DNA from: Candidatus Saccharimonadota bacterium
GTDB taxonomy: Bacteria; Pseudomonadota; Gammaproteobacteria; Enterobacterales; Enterobacteriaceae
Direction of reading: 5' to 3'
Assembly: GCA_000217635.1 (NCBI GenBank)
Contig: CP001817.1
Location: forward strand, 150,001 to 182,000
DNA length: 32,000 nucleotides
Shown: positions 4,095 to 30,296 of the stretch, in pieces
Layout: the number at the start of each line of letters is the position of its first letter
Numbering within the stretch: the stretch's first letter is position 1
Program-made: the position numbers and the translations under genes
The notes under the pieces: model-generated
The model's input: the letters and a program-made list of their open reading frames with translations, nothing else
Database searches by the model: none
Told to the model about the DNA's origin: nothing

Positions 4095-4753
4095 AATTTT
4101 TTTTATTTCTCATTTAGTATCAATATTCATGTTTAATTTTTTAAGAAATTATATGTTCTATACCATTAATAATTTATGAGTTTTAATAATAGAATTTTTT
4201 ATTATATAAAAATCTGCAATAATAAAAAATTATTTTTTTTATTAAATAAAAGTTTATTGTATTTATTATAATATCTTATTTTTAAATTATTAAAAATTTA
4301 GATAAAAATATGATTTTTTTTATAAAAACGGATAAATTGTAGCATATTTTCTAAATTTTTTCTTTTTTTTAAATACATTTGTTAATATTAGTAAATAATA
4401 AGTATTTTAATTAAAAAAATAATTTAAATATAAAATCTTTATTTTTTTAATTTTAATAAAATTTATATTGATATGAAATAGTTTTTAATTACTTAATATA
4501 ATAATGTCAATATAATCTTTAATTTTTATAAAAATAAAATAATATTTAGTATTGTAATAATTAAATTTATTATTAAATTTAACAACATATATAAGTATAA
4601 ATGAAAAATTTAACTTTATTTTAGGTTGTGATTTTTTTGAATAAGAAGTTTTATAATAAGTACGATATATTGAGATATATAATATATTTTTTGAATAATT
4701 ATTCAATATAGTACTATGTATTGAAGAGTGTATATTTTATGTATATTCTGTTT

Positions 4754-5936
4754 TTACATAGTAAAATATTTATGATACCAAAAACGAACAATTTTTTTAG
4801 ATTCTTGGATTTTTTCAATATTAACACGTAAAGAGAATAATTCTAATGCTTGTAAAAAATTTATATTTTTATGATGCTTTTTGTATTACAATGATACTGT
4901 TTTTCTATTTCTTTTTGTAGTTTCCATATTTTAGAGATAGTAATTAATATATTTTTGGGTATTCCTATGGATATAGCAGATGATTTAAGTATTTTTCGGA
5001 CAGATATAGAATATGCATTTGAAAATCCCATTATTTTTTTTTAGTTAATTTTTTTATTTTATCTAATAATGGATACCATAGTATGGAAGCAAATAAAAAA
5101 GATGCGTGGCATATTTTTTTGTTTTTATATTTTTATCAGTTTTTTTTAAAGCTTTTTTTATAATATATTTAAAAAATATTTTGTTTTTTTATTTAAAATT
5201 TTAAATAAATAAGGTAATAATGGTTTTATTAAAGAATATTTTTTTAATTTTTTTATATGTTAAATAACCAAATCCACAACAAAATAGTTTAATAGACTCG
5301 TTAAATAAACGTGCAGATGGAACATAATGTAATAGATTAGCTAATCTTGATATAGGTTCTGATGTTTTTTTAGCAATGTTCATATTTAATTGTACTGAAA
5401 AACGAATAACGCGTAACATACGCACAGGGTCTTCTCGATATCTTGTTTCTGCATCGCCAATTAAACAAATAATTTTTCTTTTAATATCATTTACACCTCC
5501 TACATAATCGCGAATTCCAAAATCTTTTATATTGTAATATAAAGCATTAATTGTAAGATCTCGTCGATATGCATCTTCTTCAATTTTTCCAAATGTATTA
5601 TCTTGTAATAATATTCCGTTTATTATTTTTTTTTGTTTTGTACGAAAAGTAGATACTTCAATAATTTCTGCTCGAAATATTAAATGAGCAATGATAAAGC
5701 GGCGTCCAATTAATCTACAGTTTTTAAAAAATCTTTTAATATCATCAGGCGTAGCGTTAGTTGCAATATCAAAGTCTTTTGGGTTTTTTTCCTAATATTA
5801 GATCTCTTACGCTTCCGCCAACTAGATATGCTTCATAACCTAATTTATTTAACCTATATATTACTTTCATAGAATTTTTACTAATTTTTATGGGAGATAT
5901 TATAGTTTTTTTTATAATTAGAGTCATATTTTTCAT
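4754..5936 (-). pseudogene. pcnB: poly(A) polymerase I remnant with multiple frameshifts and two in-frame stops
   Basis: Hand translation in four frame segments is collinear with E. coli PcnB.
- Segment 1 from ATG 5936: [53 protein letters not shown], then out of frame (TGA 5769-5771).
- Segment 2: [27 protein letters not shown]...[26 protein letters not shown]...[10 protein letters not shown], with in-frame TAA at 5201-5203 and 5189-5191.
- Segment 3: HASFLFASILWYPLLDKIKK...IGIPKNILITISKIWKLQ.
- Segment 4: HHKNINFLQALELFSLRVNIEKIQ..., stop at 4754-4756.
It lies downstream of dksA as in E. coli (dksA-gluQ-pcnB). Confidence 0.85.
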
Positions 5937-5953
5937 ATCTGTTCTATGATTAC

Positions 5954-5992
5954 ATAGTCTTATTTTTAAATTTTAATGAAAAATAAGACTAT
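5954..5992. repeat. 14-bp perfect inverted repeat (hairpin, 11-nt loop) between dksA and the pcnB remnant
   Basis: atagtcttattttt (5954-5967) pairs base for base with aaaaataagactat (5979-5992). It includes the only G/C in the neighbourhood. There is no adjacent U-run on either strand. Confidence 0.5.
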
Positions 5993-7991: not shown

Positions 7992-10587
7992 ATGTTTAAA
8001 AAAATTATTGATAAATTTTTTTTAAATTATAGTAGTCGTATTTTAAAAAAAAATAAATTATTTTGTAAAAAAAATTAATTATTTAGAAAAAGATTTGGTT
8101 AGTTTATCGGATGCAGAATTAAAAAAAAAAACAATAATATTTAAAAATCGATTAAAAAAAGGAGAAACTTTAGAACAATTATTACCAGAAGCATTTGCTG
8201 TAGTACGAGAAGCTAGTAAACGGGTTTTTGGGATGCGTCATTTTGATGTTCAATTGTTAGGAGGTATCGTATTACATCAAAACTCGATTGCAGAGATGCG
8301 TACAGGAGAAGGTAAAACTTTAACTGCAACTTTACCGGTATATTTAAATGCGTTAGAAGGAAAAGGTGTACATGTTGTTACAATGAATGATTATTTAGCT
8401 AAAAGAGATGGTAATAAAAATCGTATTTTATTTAATTTTTTAGGATTAACTGTTGGTATAAATATAAGTAAGATGTCTAAAGCAGAAAAAAGAAAAGCTT
8501 ATTCTTCTGATATTACATATGGAACTAATCATGAATATGGTTTTGATTATTTACGCGATAATATGGTTTTTTGTAGCTCTAAAAAGGTTCAAAGAGAATT
8601 ATACTATGCATTAGTTGATGAAGTGGATTCAATTTTAATAGATGAAGCCCGCACTCCATTAATTATTTCTGGTCCTGTAGATCATAGTAATAGTATATAT
8701 ATTCATATTAATAAATTAGTACGTAAATTAACTTTACAAATTAAAGATCGTGATAAAAAAAAATATATACCAGGAGACTTTTTTATCGATCGAAAAGCGC
8801 GTCAGGTATATTTAACTGAAAAAGGTATGGATACTATAGAGAAATTATTAGTTTCATATAACTTCTTAACTTCTCAGGAATCATTATACTCACCTAAAAA
8901 TATTGTATTTATTCATCATATTTTGTTAGCACTTAAAGCACATTATATATTTTTTAATAATATTGATTATATTATAAAAATAAAAAATATTATGATTGTT
9001 GATGAACATACAGGAAGAATTATGCCTGGTCGTCGTTGGTCAGAGGGTTTACATCAGGCTATTGAAGCAAAAGAGCATGTTTTAATTCAACAAGAAAACC
9101 AGACTTTAGCTTCTATTACACTGCAAAATTACTTTCGTTTATATAAAAAATTATCCGGTATGACCGGGACTGCTATCACCGAAGAATTTGAATTTCGTTC
9201 GATATATAATTTAGAAACTGTGGTTATTCCTACAAATAAACCGATGATTCGTAATGATATGTCGGATGTAATATATCTTTCTTGTACAGAAAAATATAAG
9301 GCAATTGTTGCTGCAATTAAAGATTGTGTTTTGCGTAAACAACCGGTTTTAATAGGTACTGTTTCAATTGAAAAATCTGAATTATTATCTTCTTTTTTAA
9401 AAAAAAATTTTATTAAACATAATATTTTAAATGCAAAATTTCATGCCCAAGAAGCAGATATTATTGCGCAAGCTGGTCAATTAGGCGCTGTAACTATTGC
9501 AACTAATATGGCGGGAAGAGGAACAGATATTGTTTTGGGAGGAAATTTTGATTCTTCTTATATACATGAAAAAAATAATATTAATATAAAAAAAAGGAAT
9601 TTTTTAAAAAAACGCTGGAAAAAAAATAATGCATTGGTGATTCGTAGTGGTGGTTTACATATTATAGGTACTGAAAGGCATGAATCACGTCGTATTGATA
9701 ATCAGTTAAGAGGTAGAGCAGGAAGGCAAGGTGATCCTGGTTCTTCGCGTTTTTATTTATCTTTGGAAGATCCGTTACTTCAATTATTTTTATCAGATAA
9801 AATGATTTATTTTATGAAATTATTTGGTATTAAAAAGGAAGAATCAATTGAACATCCGTGGATTAATACAGCAATAGAGAATGCGCAAAAAAAAGTAGAA
9901 AACCAAAATTTTGATGTTCGTAAAAGTTTGTTAGAATATGATAATATTATTAATGAGCAACGAAAGGTTATTTATCATGAACGAAATAAAATTATTGATT
10001 CTAGCAATTTGAGTTCGTATATTCTTGTTATTTTCTCTAATCAAATAAAAAATTTTTTAAAAAAAAATATAATTCGAAATGATTTAGATTTTAATATTTT
10101 AAAAAAATTTAAAAATTTGTTTTTTTTAGTTTATCTCGTAAAAAAATTTTTGCAAAATAAATTATTATTCTCAAATAATATTAATCATATTAATAATTAT
10201 ATTGTAAAAATTATCCAAAAAGATTATATACAACATACTTCTCAGATATCTATTAAATACAGCATGATAATTGAAAAATATGTTATATTACAAATATTTG
10301 ATCAATTTTGGAGGGATCATTTAAATTCTCTTGATTTTTTAAGGAAAAATATTTATCTTCGTAGTTATGCTCAAAAAGATCCTACACAAGAATATAAAAG
10401 AGAATCTTTTAGTATGTTTGCTTCAATGTTAGAATCTATTAAAAAATTTATAATAAAAAGTTTATTAAATATTTTTTATAAAAATTTTGAAACACATAAA
10501 TATATTTTAATAAAATTTATTGATTCTAATGATTTTAAATCTTTACGTTATTTTATTACTAAACTTTGTGAAACTATTATAATATAA
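7992..10587 (+). CDS. secA: preprotein translocase ATPase SecA, interrupted near the 5' end by a 1-nt frameshift (uninterrupted ORF 8095..10587)
   Basis: The 830-aa ORF matches E. coli SecA from residue ~36 ([10 protein letters not shown]...[27 protein letters not shown]...[14 protein letters not shown]...[19 protein letters not shown]...[10 protein letters not shown]...[30 protein letters not shown]). The conserved N-terminus [20 protein letters not shown] (E. coli [20 protein letters not shown]) is encoded from ATG 7992 in a different frame that stops at TAA 8076-8078. Confidence 0.88.
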
Positions 10588-11127: not shown

Positions 11128-13767
11128 ATGGTTACAAATATTTCTAACGATTTGGATCCATTAGAAACCAATGAATGGATTGAAGCAATTGAATCAGTTT
11201 TAAAAAATGACGGAAAGAACGAGCACTTTTTTTTAATAAAAAAAATTTTAGAAAAAATAAATATTGATGCTATTAACATAAATTTTAAAAATTATAATTT
11301 TATCAATTCTATACATTATACTGAAGAACCGCGGTATCCAGGAAATTTGAAAATTGAAAAAAATATTCGTTCTGTTGTTTGTTGGAACGCAATTATGATC
11401 GTTTTACGGGCTTCTAAAAAAAATTTAGATTTAGGAGGTCATATTTCATCTTTTCAATCTTTTGCGACAGTATATGAAGTATGTTTTAATCATTTTTTTC
11501 GTGCATCAAATAAATATGATGGGGGGGATTTAATATATTTTCAAGGACATGTTTCTCCGGGAATTTATGCTCGTGCTTTTTTAGAAGATCGATTAACAGA
11601 AACTCAGTTGGATAATTTTCGACAAGAAATATGTGGTTTTGGTTTATCATCTTACCCACATCCTAATTTAATGCCAGATTTTTGGCAATTTCCAACAGTT
11701 TCTATGGGTTTAAGTTCTGTTTGTGCAATTTATCAGGCTAGATTTTTAAAATATTTACATAATAGAAATTTAAAAAATACTACATTGCAAACTGTCTATG
11801 CTTTTTTGGGTGACGGAGAAATGGATGAGCCAGAATCTAAGGGAGCGGTTGTTTTAGCTGCACGAGAGCAATTAGATAATTTAATTTTTATAATTAATTG
11901 TAATTTGCAACGTTTGGATGGCCCGGTTTTTGGTAACGGAAAAATTATTAATGAATTATCCAGTTTTTTTTCTGGATGTGGTTGGCATGTGATTAAAGTT
12001 ATATGGAGTAGTCAATGGGATACTTTATTAGATCGAGATGATCAAGGATTTTTAAAACGTTTAATGAATGAAACAGTTGATGGAAATTATCAAACCTTAA
12101 AATCAAAAAATGGAGCATATGTTCGAAAACATTTTTTTGAAAGATATGAAGAAACTAAAAAATTAGTAGAAAATTTTACAGATAGTGAACTATGGGCTTT
12201 AAAAAGAGGAGGTCATGATCCTAAAAAAATATATGCTGCTTTTCATGAAGCTAAAAAAATTAAAGAAAAACCCGTTGTAATTTTAATACATACAGTAAAA
12301 GGTTATGGATTAGGAGAAGTTGGAGAGAGTAAAAATATTTCTCATCAGATAAAAACAATAAAAGATATTAATGTAAAATATTTATATGATCGTTTTAAGC
12401 TAAATGCGCATAAATCGGTAATTAATAATTTATCTTACATTAAATTTTTACCTGGTTCTGAAGAATATCACTATATACATCAGCAACGAAAAAAATTATA
12501 TGGATATTTACCTAAAAGATTAAAAAATTTTTCTAATTCTTTTAGGATTCCTACATTAAATGATTTTAAAATATTATTACAAAAACAATCAAAACCAATT
12601 TCTACAACTATGATTTTTATAAAAATATTAAATATATTGCTACGATTTCCTGGAATTCAAAAAAAAATAGTACCTATTATCGCTGATGAAGCACGTACTT
12701 TTGGTATGGAAGCTTTATTTCAGAAAATTGGTATTTACAATCATTTAGGTCAATTATATACTCCATCAGATAAAGAAAAATTATTATATTATAAAGAAGA
12801 AAAATCAGGACAAATATTACAAGAAGGTATTAATGAATTGGGAGCATGTGCTTCTTGGTTGGCTGCTGCAACAGCTTATAGTACAAATGATTTTCCTATG
12901 ATTCCTTTTTATATATATTATTCAATGTTTGGTTTTCAACGAGTAGGAGATTTATTATGGGCGTGTGGAGATCAAAATGCGCGAGGTTTTTTAATTGGAG
13001 CTACTTCAGGTAGAACAACTTTGAATGGCGAAGGTTTACAACATGCCGATGGACATAGTCATATATTATCTTTAACGATACCTAATTGTGTATCTTATGA
13101 TCCTGCATATGGATATGAATTATCTGTAATCATACAAGATGGATTACAACGTATGTATGGTAATAAACAAGAAAATATATTTTATTATATTACAACAGTA
13201 AATGAAAATTATTTAATGCCCTCAATGTCAAATATTATGTTAGAAGGAATCTGTAAAGGAATTTATTTATTAGAGACATTTTCAGGGAAAATAGGACGGG
13301 TACAGTTATTAGGATCAGGAGCTATTTTAGAACGTATTAGAAAAGCAGCAAGTATTTTACATGCAGAATACGATATTGGATCTGATGTATATAGTGTTAC
13401 TTCATTTACAGAATTAGCACGAAACGGTCAGGATTGTACGCGATGGAATTTTTTAAATCCTTTACAAACTAAAAAAATTCCTTATGTAAGTTCAATTATA
13501 AAAAACTATCCTACTATTGCTGCAACAGATTATATAAAAGTTTTTGCTGAACAAATTCGGGCATACATACCCTCTAAAATCTTTCATGTTTTAGGAACAG
13601 ATGGGTTTGGTCGATCTGATAGTCGAAAAAATTTGCGTAATTTTTTTGAGATCGATGAAAATTATATTATAAGCGCGGCAATTAATGCATTAGTAGATAG
13701 CAATACTATAGATCAAGATATATTATTAAAAGTTTTTAAAAATTTAATATTTTTTCAGATAAAATAA
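11128..13767 (+). CDS. aceE: pyruvate dehydrogenase E1 component (ancestral C-terminus continues in the -1 frame to 13793)
   Basis: 879-aa ORF, collinear with E. coli AceE (887 aa). Matching segments include YPGNLKIEKNIRS, GGHISSFQS, FLGDGEMDEPESKGA, INCNLQRLDGPV, ADEARTFGME, GRTTLNGEGLQHADGHSH and LGTDGFGRSDSR. Confidence 0.95.
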   Translation: MVTNISNDLDPLETNEWIEAIESVLKNDGKNEHFFLIKKILEKINIDAININFKNYNFINSIHYTEEPRYPGNLKIEKNIRSVVCWNAIMIVLRASKKNLDLGGHISSFQSFATVYEVCFNHFFRASNKYDGGDLIYFQGHVSPGIYARAFLEDRLTETQLDNFRQEICGFGLSSYPHPNLMPDFWQFPTVSMGLSSVCAIYQARFLKYLHNRNLKNTTLQTVYAFLGDGEMDEPESKGAVVLAAREQLDNLIFIINCNLQRLDGPVFGNGKIINELSSFFSGCGWHVIKVIWSSQWDTLLDRDDQGFLKRLMNETVDGNYQTLKSKNGAYVRKHFFERYEETKKLVENFTDSELWALKRGGHDPKKIYAAFHEAKKIKEKPVVILIHTVKGYGLGEVGESKNISHQIKTIKDINVKYLYDRFKLNAHKSVINNLSYIKFLPGSEEYHYIHQQRKKLYGYLPKRLKNFSNSFRIPTLNDFKILLQKQSKPISTTMIFIKILNILLRFPGIQKKIVPIIADEARTFGMEALFQKIGIYNHLGQLYTPSDKEKLLYYKEEKSGQILQEGINELGACASWLAAATAYSTNDFPMIPFYIYYSMFGFQRVGDLLWACGDQNARGFLIGATSGRTTLNGEGLQHADGHSHILSLTIPNCVSYDPAYGYELSVIIQDGLQRMYGNKQENIFYYITTVNENYLMPSMSNIMLEGICKGIYLLETFSGKIGRVQLLGSGAILERIRKAASILHAEYDIGSDVYSVTSFTELARNGQDCTRWNFLNPLQTKKIPYVSSIIKNYPTIAATDYIKVFAEQIRAYIPSKIFHVLGTDGFGRSDSRKNLRNFFEIDENYIISAAINALVDSNTIDQDILLKVFKNLIFFQIK

Positions 13768-13783: not shown

Positions 13784-13789
13784 GAGAGG
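13784..13789 (+). promoter_or_regulatory. Shine-Dalgarno-like GAGAGG, 7 nt upstream of the aceF GTG start
   Basis: The sequence reads tttGAGAGGttagataGTG. It is the only purine/G-rich patch in the aceE-aceF junction. Confidence 0.5.
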
Positions 13790-13796
13790 TTAGATA

Positions 13797-17695: not shown

Positions 17696-18852
17696 TTAAT
17701 TGATTTTTTTACGTAAAAAAGCGGGAATATCTAAAAAATTTTTTCGTTTTGATTATTGGGTGTTATATTTTTCTCTTTCATTTTATTCTCTGAATAAGTA
17801 TTATTCGTATCGTTTTGATTTAAAGATAGTTTATTTTGATATCCAAGTAACATATCTTTAGATGATCGGTTATTCATGAGCATTATATCAGAGTGTTTAT
17901 CGCCTCCTATCCCGGTAGCTACCACTGTAACTCTTAAGGATTCTTCCATCTTAGGATCTAATGAAGTTCCTATAACTACTGTTGCATTATCTGATGAAAA
18001 TGCTCGAATTGTATTTCCTACTGTTTCAAATTCATCTAAACGTAAATCAAAACCGGCTGTAATATTCACTAATACTCCTTTTGTTCCAGATAAATCAATA
18101 TCCTCTAATAATGGACTGGAAATAGCAATTTCAGAAGCTTCTTCTGCTCTATTTTCACCAGAAGCAGACCCGGTTCCCATCATAGCATATCCCATTTCTG
18201 ACATAACGGTGCGCACGTCTGCAAAATCAACATTCATTAAACCTGGTCGAGTAATTAACTCTGCAATTCCTTGAACCGCTCCTTTTAAAATATCATTAGC
18301 TGCTTTAAACGCATCTAATAAAGATATTCCTCGTGATAAAACTTTTAACAATTTATCGTTAGGTATAGTAATTAATGAATCTACAGATTTTGATAATTCT
18401 TGTAAACCTTGTTCTGCATATATCATTCTTTTTTTTCCTTCAAAACTGAAAGGTTTTGTTACAACAGCAACCGTTAATATACCTAAATCCCTTGCTATTT
18501 TAGCAATTATAGGAGTTGCTCCTGTCCCAGTTCCTCCGCCCATACCTGCCGCTATAAAAATCATATCAGCACCTTCAAGGGCTGATTTCAGTCTTTCTGT
18601 ATCTTCTTCTGCAGCCGTTCTTCCTACTTCTGGATTTGCTCCAGCACCTAATCCTTTAGTAATATTATTTCCTATTTGTATAGTTTGTCCTACATCTATT
18701 TTACGCAAAGCTTGTGCGTCTGTATTAATTGCAAAAAATTCTACTCCCTCTATTTTTTCGCGAATCATATGTTCTACAGCATTACTTCCCCCACCACCTA
18801 TACCTATTACTTTAATAATCGCATCATTTTCTAAATTAACTGGTTCAAACAT
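17696..18852 (-). CDS. ftsZ: cell division GTPase FtsZ; annotated ORF 17731..18852 stops just before the conserved C-terminal peptide, which continues in the -1 frame to 17696
   Basis: 373-aa ORF with tubulin signature [15 protein letters not shown] start region and NVDFADV. Its AAGGA Shine-Dalgarno lies upstream of ATG 18852. The -1 frame after the A6T6 run (17733-17744) encodes [13 protein letters not shown] then a stop (TAA 17696-17698). E. coli FtsZ ends [14 protein letters not shown]. Confidence 0.9.
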
Positions 18853-18910: not shown

Positions 18911-20150
18911 TTAAAATTCTTTTTTTAACCAATTGTATATTTGTCTAATCCAATTATGTAATATTCCTATTTTCTTTGGAATGATTTTTTTTATTTTTTT
19001 TCCATATTGTAATAATCCAATAATTGTTGAGTATTCTGGTTGTGTAATATTTTCTGGAAGATCTGGTAGATTTGGTTTTTTAAGGATTACATTGGTTTGA
19101 AATATTTTTGTTGCATATAGTGGTAATGATTTGATTTGCGATGCTCCACCCGTTAAAACAATTCCCATTAACAATTTATTTTTATTTTTTATTTCTAAAT
19201 TGAATTCACATTTTAATAGTTCATGATTAACTAATTGTAATAATTCAGAATATCTTGATTCAATAACTTCTACTAATTTTGCATGTTGTAAATTTTTTAT
19301 TTTTTCGCCATTTTTTTTAAAGATATCTATATTATTTTTGATATTACGTAAATCACTAATAACTGATCCGTATTTTTTCTTTATAAATTCAGCATCATAA
19401 TATGATAAAGAAAAAGCATAAGCGATATCTTTAGTAACTATATCGCCTCCATAAGGAATAACAGCACTATGCCGTAATGATCCTTGTGTATAAATACTGA
19501 TATTAATTATTTCTCCGCCGATATCTACTAAGCAAACCCCTAATTTTTCTTCTTCTGTTAAAATTGCTTCACTTGCAGCTAATCCAGAAAAAATAATTTT
19601 TGATACTTTTACCCCGCATTTTTCAATTGCTTTAGTTATATTTTTTTCAAGACTATAACAAGAAGTTATTAAATGTACATTAGCTTGCATACGTACACCG
19701 GATAGTCCTAATGGATTTTTTATATTTGATTGCTGGTCAATTGAAAATTCTTGCGGAATAATATGTGTTATGAATCGGTCATTCCTTATTTTTATTGATT
19801 GCGCAGTTTTAATAGCATTTTTAATATCGTCACGAGTAACTTCATCTTGTTTAATTGGAACTACGCCAATTTCATTTAAACATTCTATATCTTTATGTGA
19901 AATTGATACATATACTGATGTAATCTTATATTTTGCAACTTTTTCAGCTTCATAAATAGATTTTTTAATACATGAGATTAATAATTCTAAATTATTGATA
20001 TGACCATTTTCTATCCCATACGATTGATTTTGACTAAATCCAATAATTTCTATATTTTGATTATTTAGAATAGCTCCAATTAATACTATAATTTTTTTTT
20101 GACCCTATTTCCAAACCAACTACTATATTTTTATTATTTGAAATACTCAT
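18911..20150 (-). CDS. ftsA: cell division protein FtsA, interrupted by a 1-nt frameshift in an A9 tract at codon ~19
   Basis: ATG at 20150 gives MSISNNKNIVVGLEIGSKK (E. coli ...RKLVVGLEIGTAK). After the tract (T9 on + strand, 20092-20100) the protein continues in the +1 frame: IIVLIGAILNNQNIEIIGFSQ...NPLGLSGVRMQANVHLITS...LVDIGGE...VLTGGASQI...NWLKKEF. This is collinear with E. coli FtsA to the C-terminal amphipathic helix. The ORF track only shows 18911..19690, from an internal Met. Confidence 0.88.
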
Positions 20151-21548
20151 GTTTAACCTGTATTTATGGTTATTCTATTTTTTTATGATTATTTAAGGAG
20201 ATCCTTATTATATAGGATTTTTTGATTTATAATGTAATCTAGATTTTCTATTAAATTATTATGTTTATTAATCATATTATTTGATGTGTTTTATAATATA
20301 AAAAAATAGGTATTGTAATTAATAAAAATAATTTTGTAAGTACATAAAATATGTATTTATTTTTTTTATTGCTCTATTGTAGAGATTGATTCTTTATTTT
20401 AATATAAAAATTTTAAATAAAATTATAGATATTTTTTTTAAATCGATTTATTGTTATATAATTTAGTATTATTATATGCATAATTAAGTATTTATTATGA
20501 TAAATAAAATTTATTATCAGGATAGATTTTTATTTCTTATGTTTGAAAACATTAAATTCTTATATATTTTATAGATATTTAATAGATAAAATATAAAAAA
20601 AATTAATTTTTAAAAGATATCAAACATTAATAAAAAGTAAATTAGGATATATTTTGATTTTTAAAAAATATGTTAAAAAAATTTTTTATTTAATAATATT
20701 AAATATATTATATAAATAATGAACTGGATATAATATTAACTATGGTTTTATTTTTTATTTGTTCTTATATAGAATTAAATATATTTTTAATTTGAAAAAT
20801 TACGATTTTTAATAAAAAAAATTTTAAATTTGATTAATTATTTATAATTTATAGTTGCAATAATAATAAATTATTTTATATGACTTTATAATGTTATATC
20901 TCTATTTGAGATAATATGATAATAATGAATTATTTATTTTTTAGATATTTTTATTTGTAAAAGAGTATAAGTGGTTTTATAGTTTTATTATTAAAGATAA
21001 TGCATCACTTTTTTTCTTTTTACTTTTATTTATTAACTGCAACACTTATTATTAATAAGTATAGCTAATAATATTAAATTATTATACATGAATAATGTAA
21101 AAGGTTTTAATTCAATTGTATAAAATTTTAAAAATGATTTTTTTTTGTTTAAATTTTTTTTTAGAATTTTATAACATTAAAAAAGATATTATTTATTTTA
21201 ATAAATATTAAATTTAATAACTTTTAATATTAAAAATATAATTGTAAAAATATATGTTGTATTATTATTAAATAATCAATATTGTTTTTTAAAAAAGATA
21301 CATGCTATATCTTATATAATATAATGTAATATTTTATATGTAAAAAAATATTAAGTTTTAAAATAAAAATTTTAAAAAATTTTTTATTACACCAATATAG
21401 ATGTTTATTAATTTTATTAATTTTAAATTATTATATATATATTTTTAAATGATAAAAATTTAATGTCATTTAAAGTATTAGAAAATTTTTTATTTTTATT
21501 TATATAATATTATTTTTAATATGTATTATATTAATAAAATATATAGAA
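20151..21548. other. 1.4-kb non-coding spacer where the ftsL-ftsI-murE-murF-mraY-murD-ftsW-murG-murC-ddlB-ftsQ block sits in E. coli
   Basis: It is flanked by ftsA (start 20150) and rsmH (stop 21549) on the same strand. There is no ORF in the track, G/C is almost absent, and I found no recognisable remnant peptide in any frame. Confidence 0.7.
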
Positions 21549-23107: not shown

Positions 23108-24822
23108 TTAATTTCTTAATAACATTTCATTCATCCCGCCATTTTTTATTTGCATAGGATAAATATGTTCAGTTGGATCAATATGTATATCTAAAAATAC
23201 TAAAGATCCATGATTAACTATGTTAATCGCATGTAATAATTTTTTTTAATGTCAGAAGGTTTATTAATTATTAAGCCAATATGTCCATATGATTCTACTA
23301 ATTTTACAAAATTTGGTAATGATTTCATATATGAATGTGAATGTCGTCCAGAATATATCATATCTTGCCACTGTTTCACCATACCTAAAGATTGATTATT
23401 TAAATTGATTATTAAAATAGCTATTTTATATTGTTTTGCAGTAGATAGTTCTTGGATATTCATTTGAATACTTCCATCACCAGTAATGCATATTACTAAT
23501 TCGTTTGGAAAAGCTAATTTTACACCGAGAGCAGCTGGAAGTCCAAAACCCATAGTTCCTAATCCACCTGAATTAATCCAATGACGCGGTTTTTTAAAAT
23601 TATAATATAATGCAGTAAACATTTGATGCTGTCCAACATCTGAAGTAATATATGCATTTCCTTGAGTTAAAGAAGATAACTCTTTTATTACACCTTGTGG
23701 TTTAATAAAATTTTGAGAATTTTGATATTGAAGACATTGTATTTGTTTCCATTGATCAATTAGCTTCCACCATGCACATAAATAATTTTTTTCTCTTATA
23801 TTATTTTTTTTGTTTAAAAAATATAAGATTTCTTTTAAAATAATTTTAGCATCACCAACAATAGGAATATGCGCTGTAATTGTTTTAGAAATAGATGTAG
23901 GATCTATATCAATATGTATTATTTTAGCGGTTGGACAATACTTTTTAATGTTATTTGTTGTACGATCATCAAAACGTACCCCGATAGCTAAAATAACGTC
24001 GGAATAATGTATTGCCATATTAGCTTCATAGGTACCATGCATACCTAACATGGATAAGTTTTGTGGATGATCTCCGGGAAATGCGCCTAATGACATTAAA
24101 GATAAAACAACAGGAATATTTAATTTTGTTGCCAATTGATATAATTCTGAATGACTATTTGAATTAATGATTCCGCCTCCAGCATAAATAATCGGTTTTT
24201 TTGCTTTTATAAAAATTTTTATTGCTTTTTTAATTTGACCTATATGTCCATTTTTAATGGGATTATATGATCGAATATTGATTGATTCTGGCCATATATA
24301 ATTTTTTTTTATATTTTGATCTAATATATTTTTAGGTAAATCTATTACTACTGGTCCTGGTCGACCGCTTGTAGCTAATAAAAAAGATTTTTTAAAAATT
24401 TCTGGAATTTCTTCAGTTTTTTGTACTAAGAAACTATGCTTAACAATAGGGCGAGAAATCCCAATCATATCACATTCTTGAAATGCATCATAACCCATTA
24501 GTTCTGAAGAAACTTGACCTGAAATTATTAATAAAGGAATAGAATCCATATAAGCTGTTGCAATTCCAGTAATAGAATTGGTAGCTCCAGGCCCTGAAGT
24601 TACTAATACTACTCCAATTTTTCCAGTTGCCCGTGCATAACCATCAGCCATATGTGCGGCACCTTGTTCGTGTCTTACTAAAATGTGCTTTATTTTTTTT
24701 CCGATTGTTTTAAATGCATCATATATATCTAATACAGCGCCACCAGGGTATCCAAATATAATTTTAATATTTAAATCAATTAGTGATTGAATGACCATTT
24801 CAGCGCCTGATAATAACTTCAT
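23108..24822 (-). CDS. ilvI: acetolactate synthase III large subunit, with a 1-nt frameshift in an A8 tract ~45 codons before the ancestral stop
   Basis: The true start is ATG 24822 ([28 protein letters not shown] vs E. coli [28 protein letters not shown]), with AAGGA upstream. The 40-codon extension in the ORF track is low-complexity. ThDP motif [14 protein letters not shown]...[12 protein letters not shown] is present. The zero frame stops at 23218-23220. The -1 frame gives [43 protein letters not shown] then a stop (TAA 23108-23110), collinear with the E. coli C-terminus. Confidence 0.9.
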
Positions 24823-25077
24823 AGTATATGGTCCTTTTTTTATATATTTTTTTTTTAATTTCTTTATTTTAGTAAAAATTTTTATTTTATTATTTTTTAA
24901 AGTAAAATAACAAATAATTTTTTTTATTAATATAGTATACATATTTTAATATTATTAAAAAAACTTTTATGTTTAGTTTTTTTTAAATTTTTATTTTATG
25001 TAATATTAAAATTATTTTTTATGTTATGTTTTTTTAATTTTTAATTATATAAATATTTTTTTTATATAATATTTTCA

Positions 25078-25153: not shown

Positions 25154-25942
25154 TTAATTTTCTCGGAGCAATAAATTAAGTTCGGTTTTTTTTAATGTTT
25201 TATAATCTACTTTTTTAACAATAACAGCGCAATATAAGTTAATTTTTTTATCCGTTGAGGGAAGAGATCCAGGTACTACTACTGATCCATTTGGAACTTT
25301 TCCATAAAAAATATTATTTGTTTCGCGATCATAAATTTTTGTACTTTGTCCGATGTACACGCCCATAGAGATGACAGATCCTTGACCAATTATTACACCT
25401 TCTACTATTTCTGAGCGCGCACCAATAAAACAATTATCTTCAATAATTGTAGGATTATTTTGTAGAGGTTCTAATACACCACCTATACCAACTCCTCCGG
25501 ATAAATGAACATTTTTTCCGATTTGAGCGCAAGATCCAACAGTTGCCCATGTGTCAATCATGCTATTTTTTCCAATATGAGCTCCGATATTAACAAAACT
25601 AGGCATAAGTATAACATTTTTATCAATAAATGAACCATATCTAACGGTTGCATATGGTATAATACGAATATTATCATTAATAAATTGATTTTCATCATAT
25701 TTTTTATATTTTAAAGGTATTTTGTCATAATATGAGTTTTCGGCGCATTTGAATATTTTATTTTTTTTTGAGTATAAATATAATAATACGGATTTTTTAA
25801 TCCATTGGTGAGTTATCCAGGTTTTATTAATTTTTTCGGATACTTTAATTTTACCAAAATTTAATAAATCAATAGCTTTATTTATTATTTTTTTATCTTT
25901 AGCTTGAATAATATAGTTTTTTATTTTATTTTTTTTGATCAT
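25154..25942 (-). CDS. dapD: tetrahydrodipicolinate N-succinyltransferase
   Basis: 262-aa [16 protein letters not shown] and hexapeptide-repeat core [51 protein letters not shown] are nearly identical to E. coli DapD. Confidence 0.95.
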
Positions 25943-26117
25943 AAATATAATCTATATTTTTTTTAGTTCTAACATGTTAATATATAACCTTTCTAAAATG
26001 ATAAACAGTTTAAATCTATTTATTTTTTTGTTAATTTTTATACTATGATATAATTTATTTGGTTTAATATTAGAATTAGATCAATTTTTATAAAAAGTTT
26101 AAAAATATTTGAATGAC

Positions 26118-28982: not shown

Positions 28983-29739
28983 TTCTTCATTAATTGTTTA
29001 ATAATTTGAAGTGATTTATTAAAGTTGGTTTTATTTTAATTTATAGTATTTAAGGTAGTTTTATAAAAATAAGTATTACTATTAATTTTAAAAAATTTAA
29101 TTGATTAATAAAATATAATTTTTAATATATTAAATAAATTAATTATTTTATGTAATATTTTTAAATATCAATATATTTATTTGATTATTATAATAATTTC
29201 TAAGAGTTATAAAAATTAAAATAGAATATATACATACTTTTAATTATTAATTGAATATTTATAAATAATGATTTTTTTTTCTCATTTTTTAAATGGTATT
29301 TTAATAGATCAAAAATAATAGATTTTATTGAAAAGATTAATTGATGATTATATTTATATAATTTTTATTATATTAGTTGTTTACTATTCATAATTAATAA
29401 TATGATTTTTATATATTTAATATTAAAATGGGTTTTTATAATGATTTATAATATTTTTATGAAAATTACTTAGTTTTATTCTTATTGTAAGAAATATTAT
29501 TTTATTGATTAATATAAAATATTAATAAAAAATATACTTTTAAAGAACATAATATATAAGTATATTAAAGTGATTAAATAAATGTTTTTAATATCTTTAA
29601 GTAATTTTTTTTCTAAATATATTAATGTAATATCTGTTATTATTGGATTATATTTAATATATAAAAAAAATAAAAATTTTTTTTAAGTTCTTATTAATTT
29701 TATAATTAATTCTAATACTTATATAAGGATTTCTAAAAA
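28983..29739. other. 757-bp non-coding spacer occupying the position (and roughly the length) of pyrH
   Basis: In E. coli the order is rpsB-tsf-pyrH-frr and pyrH is ~0.73 kb. Here tsf and frr are separated by 757 nt with no ORF, almost no G/C and no recognisable UMP-kinase motif in any frame. Confidence 0.6.
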
Positions 29740-30296
29740 ATGATTAATTCATTAGTAGAATATGTTCGTGTTTCCATGAATAAATGTGTTATAGTTTTTC
29801 AAGATGATTTAAACAATATACGTGCTAATCATGTTACGCCATCATTATTAAAAAATATTTATATTGAATATTTTGGTGTTAAGACTTCGTTGTTCCAATT
29901 ATCTAATATTGTTGTAGAAGACAATAATACATTAAAAATAACATTATTTGACGAATCTATAAAAAATACAGTGGAAAAAGCTATTATAAATTCAAATTTA
30001 GGTTTTAATCCAATTTCGATAGATTCTATTATTCGTATTCCTGTTCCTATTTTATCTGAGGATAGAAGAAGAGAATTAGTAAAAATGATTAAAAAAGATT
30101 CTGAACATACCCGGGTTACAATAAGAAATATTAGGCGAGATGCGCATGAAAAGTTAAAAATTTTTTTAAAAAATAAAAAATAACACAAGATTTAATGCGA
30201 GATTATAAAAAAGAAATTCAAGATTGTACCGATATGTTTATTAAAAAAATTAATAAAATAGTTGCTCTCAAAGAAAATGAGTTAATGAATGTTTAA
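29740..30296 (+). CDS. frr: ribosome recycling factor, with a 1-nt frameshift in an A6 tract (uninterrupted ORF 29740..30183)
   Basis: The 147-aa ORF is collinear with E. coli RRF residues 1-147 ([29 protein letters not shown]...[18 protein letters not shown]...[12 protein letters not shown]). The -1 frame from 30180 gives [38 protein letters not shown] then a stop (TAA 30294-30296), collinear with E. coli [38 protein letters not shown]. Confidence 0.9.

Follow-up and report, generated by a model that had tools for sequence, protein, structure and literature searches.

The ftsZ gene of Buchnera aphidicola (Cinara tujafilina), hereafter BCt, is split in the deposited 2011 assembly, with the docking peptide of its product encoded one frame back from the body of the protein, and we consider this split to be most probably (with a probability of roughly 0.8) a homopolymer-length miscall in that assembly, and not a recoding signal. 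On this reading, the real genome would carry A7T6 at the ftsZ site and would encode an ordinary FtsZ of 385 residues, with nothing recoded, and the missing A would be one of roughly ten ±1 miscalls in the window (by which we mean the whole 32-kb stretch of DNA that was analysed, with a G+C content of 22.6%). The preliminary description of this DNA, which proposed the ftsZ run as a recoding site, had named assembly error as the scenario that would overturn its proposal, and it is this scenario that has become the leading explanation.

As deposited, the ftsZ ORF occupies positions 18852 to 17731 on the minus strand (373 residues followed by TAG), and its product is 100% identical to a deposited BCt protein of 373 aa (P0001, annotated as 'cytoskeletal cell division protein'), contains both the Tubulin/FtsZ GTPase domain (PF00091) and the FtsZ_C domain (PF12327), and shares 83% identity with residues 1-329 of E. 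coli FtsZ. The conserved C-terminal peptide of FtsZ, which also ends the E. coli protein, is the motif by which FtsZ docks to FtsA and ZipA. In the BCt record this motif, (D/N)IP(A/S/T)FLR(K/R), is not in frame at the C-terminus and is instead present at -1. The zero frame ends with AAT AAT CAA AAC GAA AAA ATT TTT TAG, the TAG (17731-17733) lying at the end of a run of six A (17744-17739) and six T (17738-17733) on the minus strand. On the same strand, the -1 frame stays open over positions 17752 to 17696, being shut upstream by a TAA at 17753-17755 and ending, after 18 residues, with a TAA at 17696-17698; within it, the 11 residues of the docking peptide occupy positions 17737 to 17705. This layout (an ORF ending in ...NEKIF, the docking peptide following in the -1 frame, and the two bounding stop codons) had been reported in the preliminary description, and we confirm it in full on the minus strand.

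As had been proposed, the tail in the -1 frame is the C-terminal docking peptide of FtsZ and not a chance resemblance: the motif [FY]L[DN]IP[AST]FLR[KRT] matches once in the six frames of the window and never in 300 shuffles, and the analytic expectation for this 10-residue motif is about 5e-9 per window. Adding a single A in silico yields a 385-aa FtsZ with the docking peptide in frame at its C-terminus. The G/C-containing codons of the tail, previously taken as a sign of ongoing selection, are indeed there (CCC GCT and CGT, and these only), but the argument built on them holds equally well if the tail is in frame in the real genome. As for the run, the self-complementary A6T6 string AAAAAATTTTTT occurs five times in the window (at 10047, 17733, 20676, 21374 and 31292), against 0.85 occurrences expected from dinucleotide shuffles, and the string itself is not unusual for the BCt genome.

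The state of ftsZ in other Buchnera is the first line of evidence for a miscall. The 119 other FtsZ matches listed are 380-390 aa long and have the docking peptide in frame; the BCt tail agrees with the motif of all of them, and among the matches listed it is out of frame in the BCt record only. Most FtsZ proteins of Cinara-clade Buchnera end with the same 14-residue sequence, in frame, and the BCt tail is identical to the consensus of this clade across the 11 docking-peptide residues. At the DNA level, ftsZ is in frame at the five closest-relative loci (L081-L085): the Logan assembly L085 has GAAAAAAATTTTTTAGAT, that is, A7T6, as do L082-L084 (three separate assemblies with one and the same FtsZ), and C. 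confinis (L081) reads GAAAGAAATTTTTTAGAT, where BCt reads G-AAAAAATTTTTTAGAT. The relatives are in frame, and the BCt ftsZ is thus one A short. The TAG straight after the run is there because TTTTTTAGAT contains a TAG once the frame moves; the combination of slippery run and stop codon, which gives the site its appearance of a recoding signal, follows trivially when the ancestral GAAAAAAATTTTTTAGAT loses one A.

The comparison of ftsZ 3' ends with related Buchnera, which the preliminary description had suggested, thus reveals a conserved tail that is present and in frame, with A7T6 in the closest relatives. Additionally, it separates the two additions that had been put forward as restoring the frame: A7 agrees with the EKNF encoded by the relatives, and T7 was rejected as the restoring state, since the relatives do not encode EKIF. 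Two further readings of the site were also discarded, a conserved programmed frameshift because the relatives are in frame (the ftsZ frameshift was found in none of those examined), and an old pseudogene because the tail is intact and there is no rate acceleration. Exact-protein searches with BCt FtsZ, ErpA and LpdA, in a contig index that does not include the deposited genome either, returned no contig and hence no independent assembly of this genome, a unique 24-mer upstream of the ftsZ run had no exact DNA match in metagenome contigs, and an FtsZ scan of genome contigs gave, among the matches listed, free-living Enterobacterales only and no Buchnera.

Two public records stood out during these comparisons: a protein filed under 'Janthinobacterium lividum' (P0010, from a metagenome-assembled genome) is a Buchnera-type FtsZ with a Cinara-type tail, and another filed under the plant 'Nymphaea colorata' (P0056) is a Buchnera-type FtsZ with an Aphidinae-type tail. 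Both are probably the result of aphid-symbiont contamination or mis-binning.

The second line of evidence comes from the rest of the window, in which frame breaks were sought with E. coli K-12 orthologues as neutral queries, together with the corresponding loci of relatives. In the 32 kb (25 kb of them coding), A/T runs have about ten ±1 indels, i.e. approximately one per 3-4 kb, and these affect 8 of the 22 genes: ftsZ, ftsA, secA, aceE, ilvI, dapD (twice), frr and pcnB. Both signs occur, in runs of 4 to 9 nucleotides (the A6 of ftsZ, the A5 of aceE, the ilvI run and the A6 of frr are -1; the A9 runs of ftsA and secA are +1). The number of indels relative to the runs of a given length is 1/434 for A4, 1/198 for A5, 2/144 for A6, 1/73 for A7, 3/46 for A8 and 2/15 for A9, a climb with run length that is equally compatible with replication slippage. 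The indels are indifferent to how essential the gene is and to the position within it, falling at codon 20 of secA and codon 18 of ftsA as well as in the tails of frr, aceE and ilvI.

In secA, aceE, ilvI, dapD and frr, five conserved and mostly essential genes, the conserved remainder survives undamaged in another frame. In ftsA, which adjoins ftsZ upstream (gene span 18911-20150), an A9 run at 20092-20100 on the minus strand (GGGTC-A9-TTATAG, codons 17-19) stands where the relatives have TC[T/C]-A7 (8 nt), which makes it +1; residues 1-19 and 16-415 of FtsA are consequently in different frames, but the gene shows no other damage and its product has 82% identity to the FtsA of C. confinis. In secA, an A9 run at 8045-8053 on the plus strand (around codon 20) would have to be A8 to join the flanking conserved segments. 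The plus-strand T5A5 of aceE (13733-13742) corresponds to T4A6 in C. confinis, and is therefore -1, leaving the conserved C-terminus KFNIFSDKINPRLG out of frame. The minus-strand A8TT of ilvI (23238-23247) is A8TTT in the Logan assembly L085, again -1, and the last 45 conserved codons of this gene are intact but out of frame, ending at the position of the relatives' stop codon. In frr, six A followed by TAA (30175-30183, plus strand) interrupt the gene at a point where A7 would join ...FLKNKK to the conserved C-terminus of RRF. The 5' end of dapD has two A8 runs on the minus strand (25929-25964), of which the one at 25957-25964 needs +1 and the one at 25929-25936 needs -1, and only when the shifted frame is read does the segment between them (they are 33 nt apart) resemble the relatives.

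Some of these genes have additional peculiarities. The frame-corrected aceE product ends in ...NPRLG followed by LRG and the stop codon (stop region 13785-13795), with BCt having GGTTTGA and all relatives having GG(T/C/A)-T(G/A)A, and this extension of three codons (LRG) may be real or may reflect one more miscall in a T run. The ilvI ORF that starts at the first ATG (23218-24942) has 574 aa owing to about 40 extra N-terminal codons, the match to E. coli beginning at 24822, and the C-terminal frameshift is masked because these extra codons give the ORF a normal-looking length. The minus-strand pcnB (4485-5972) has at least two breaks and at least three frame pieces; the first break is at 5777-5780, where there is an A4 and CCC AAA GAC (A3) is needed (+1), and the second is in or beside an A7 run at 5114-5120, the 3' third (about 4485-5040) being unrecognisable. 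This gene may be a genuine pseudogene and not the product of miscalls alone.

A third line of evidence is the absence of any sign of decay in the affected genes. In the part of ftsA that follows the break (393 codons), dN/dS between BCt and C. confinis is 0.13, compared with 0.16 between two intact relatives and 0.16-0.17 for the intact controls lpdA and rsmH, and when dN is divided among the branches by a three-point estimate, the BCt branch is the shortest in ftsA and in ftsZ alike. The 'broken' genes behave like fully functional ones, with no relaxed constraint. Genuine gene loss in the window has another aspect: no remnant was detected by tblastn of pyrH between tsf and frr (28983-29739) or of murC between rsmH and ftsA (20151-21548), and since nothing is found in either gap, these two losses are old and complete. 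The pyrH gene is kept in C. cedri, and a murC-like ORF (488-492 aa) is kept in C. piceae and C. splendens. A scan of the window for Rfam families and tRNA genes found none.

Finally, BCt is an outlier among its relatives. With the same E. coli queries, the related loci of six Buchnera (C. confinis LT667503, Logan SRR21069242, C. cedri CP000263, C. piceae LR217739, C. splendens LR217722 and T. salignus CP135003; about 110 kb in total) gave no frame break, every gene being matched end to end in a single frame, with secA, aceE, ilvI, dapD and frr intact in all six, and the homopolymer census of these relatives is comparable to that of BCt. Validated whole genomes of Blochmannia have 4-8 homopolymer-frameshifted genes each; the eight that BCt has in 32 kb alone are far denser. 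The indels in the window are thus many, of both signs, confined to homopolymers, dependent on run length, blind to essentiality and absent from independently sequenced relatives with similar homopolymer content, which is the pattern expected from sequencing error. The approximately nine further ±1 indels in the same window argue for base-calling error and against a special property of ftsZ, and we infer a base-calling rather than a mutational cause.

The probable sequencing technology points in the same direction. The BCt genome was itself, as we take it, a 454 pyrosequencing project. Homopolymer errors of 454 reads in AT-rich endosymbionts share with the BCt indels their size (±1 in A/T runs), their two signs and their length dependence, as well as their blindness to gene function and their absence from relatives sequenced otherwise. 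This technology is unreliable in the poly-A regions of Buchnera (PMC3890641), and in the largely 454-based Portiera genome of Santos-Garcia et al. 2012 an excess of homopolymer indels was put down to sequencing error (PMC3673631). The group behind the BCt genome sequenced C. tujafilina DNA by 454 FLX/Titanium, and that assembly needed Illumina polishing (PMC4122931). In a uniform re-annotation, BCt has 394 CDSs and 78.5 kb of non-coding DNA, both higher than in C. confinis, C. cedri and C. strobi (PMC11193766), which is consistent with split genes.

Among the alternatives, the one that survives best, and which we still regard as improbable, is that the A7-to-A6 deletion is real and that full-length FtsZ comes from a minority of messages or ribosomes, either because RNA polymerase adds an A (or U) in A6T6 or because peptidyl-tRNA-Phe slips by -1 on U UUU UAG during slow decoding of the stop codon. 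The ribosomal route was assessed by comparison with known programmed frameshifts. The -1 frameshift of dnaX uses A AAA AAG, with a Shine-Dalgarno-like element upstream and a hairpin downstream. The ftsZ site resembles it in that its sequence is slippery and A/U-rich and that the -1 frame encodes a C-terminal extension, but differs from it in the elements that make such a site work: no heptamer of the type X XXY YYZ fits the zero frame (GAA AAA ATT TTT TAG), leaving the single-tRNA U UUU slip as the only ribosomal slip possible; the 63 nt after the site fold at 0 kcal/mol (z = +1.1); there is no Shine-Dalgarno-like element near the site, the nearest AGGAGG on that strand being about 160 nt upstream; and the split is not conserved, the relatives encoding the peptide in frame. 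Together with the many sister indels in the window, these results leave the earlier proposal of a recoding site unsupported.

Rescue by transcriptional slippage has better precedents, namely the poly(A)-tract frameshifts of Buchnera and Blochmannia which, according to Tamas et al. in 2008 and Wernegreen et al. in 2010, are reportedly corrected in this way. As in these cases, the ftsZ of BCt has one indel in an A/T homopolymer within an otherwise intact and constrained gene, without rate acceleration, which is the published signature of slippage rescue. The known cases have long runs (about 9 or more), are often shared between strains or species, and amount to a handful per genome, whereas in BCt the ftsZ run is A6 followed by T6, the frameshift is present in one record only, and such indels occur about once per 3-4 kb. 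Real poly(A) frameshifts exist in Buchnera and are routinely treated as functional; transcription insertions in this genus are almost exclusively found in A/T runs, and at long poly(A) runs a share of 12-50% of the transcripts is reported to be corrected. Nevertheless, slippage rises exponentially with run length, the efficient cases on record have about 9 or more As, and in the genome-wide work of Traverse and Ochman no reading frame was seen to be restored. An A6 run is a poor substrate. Moreover, secA, frr, aceE, ilvI and the double indel of dapD, including runs of A4-A6, would all depend on the same rescue, which would leave several essential proteins severely under-produced at once.

There is also a broader version of the same idea, in which the deposited run lengths are all correct. 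BCt would then tolerate dozens of ±1 length changes in the homopolymers of essential genes (secA, frr, aceE, ilvI, ftsA and ftsZ), again including A4-A6 runs, and would rely genome-wide on unusually error-prone transcription or translation, which seems to us very unlikely; under these circumstances the A6T6-UAG of ftsZ would give the docking peptide by insertion of an A or U or by a -1 slip of tRNA-Phe.

Least likely of all is a real and unrescued deletion, in which a 373-aa FtsZ without docking peptide and a frameshifted ftsA would mark a first step towards giving up an autonomous division machinery, a course taken by more reduced endosymbionts: both genes are broken in the deposited sequence and the other dcw genes between rsmH and ftsA have already been lost, but ftsA and ftsZ are intact in every other Lachninae Buchnera examined, 393 codons of ftsA remain open and constrained in a genome of 23% GC, the tail has kept the clade consensus, and this reading does not account for the matching breaks elsewhere (secA, frr, aceE, ilvI and dapD).

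Whichever of these readings applies, there is nothing new in kind at this locus: it is an artefact, or else it adds one more case to the poly(A) frameshifts already known. Were the deposited run lengths genuine, BCt would rely to an extreme degree on the infidelity of its polymerase or ribosome. If, as we favour, the ftsZ split is a homopolymer miscall, the public BCt record (including the 373-aa 'FtsZ') probably carries, by extrapolation from the window, about a hundred homopolymer errors, which could seed false claims of recoding or of 'loss of FtsA binding', and which, by truncating and splitting genes, would inflate the counts of pseudogenes and gene losses in studies of genome reduction in Buchnera.
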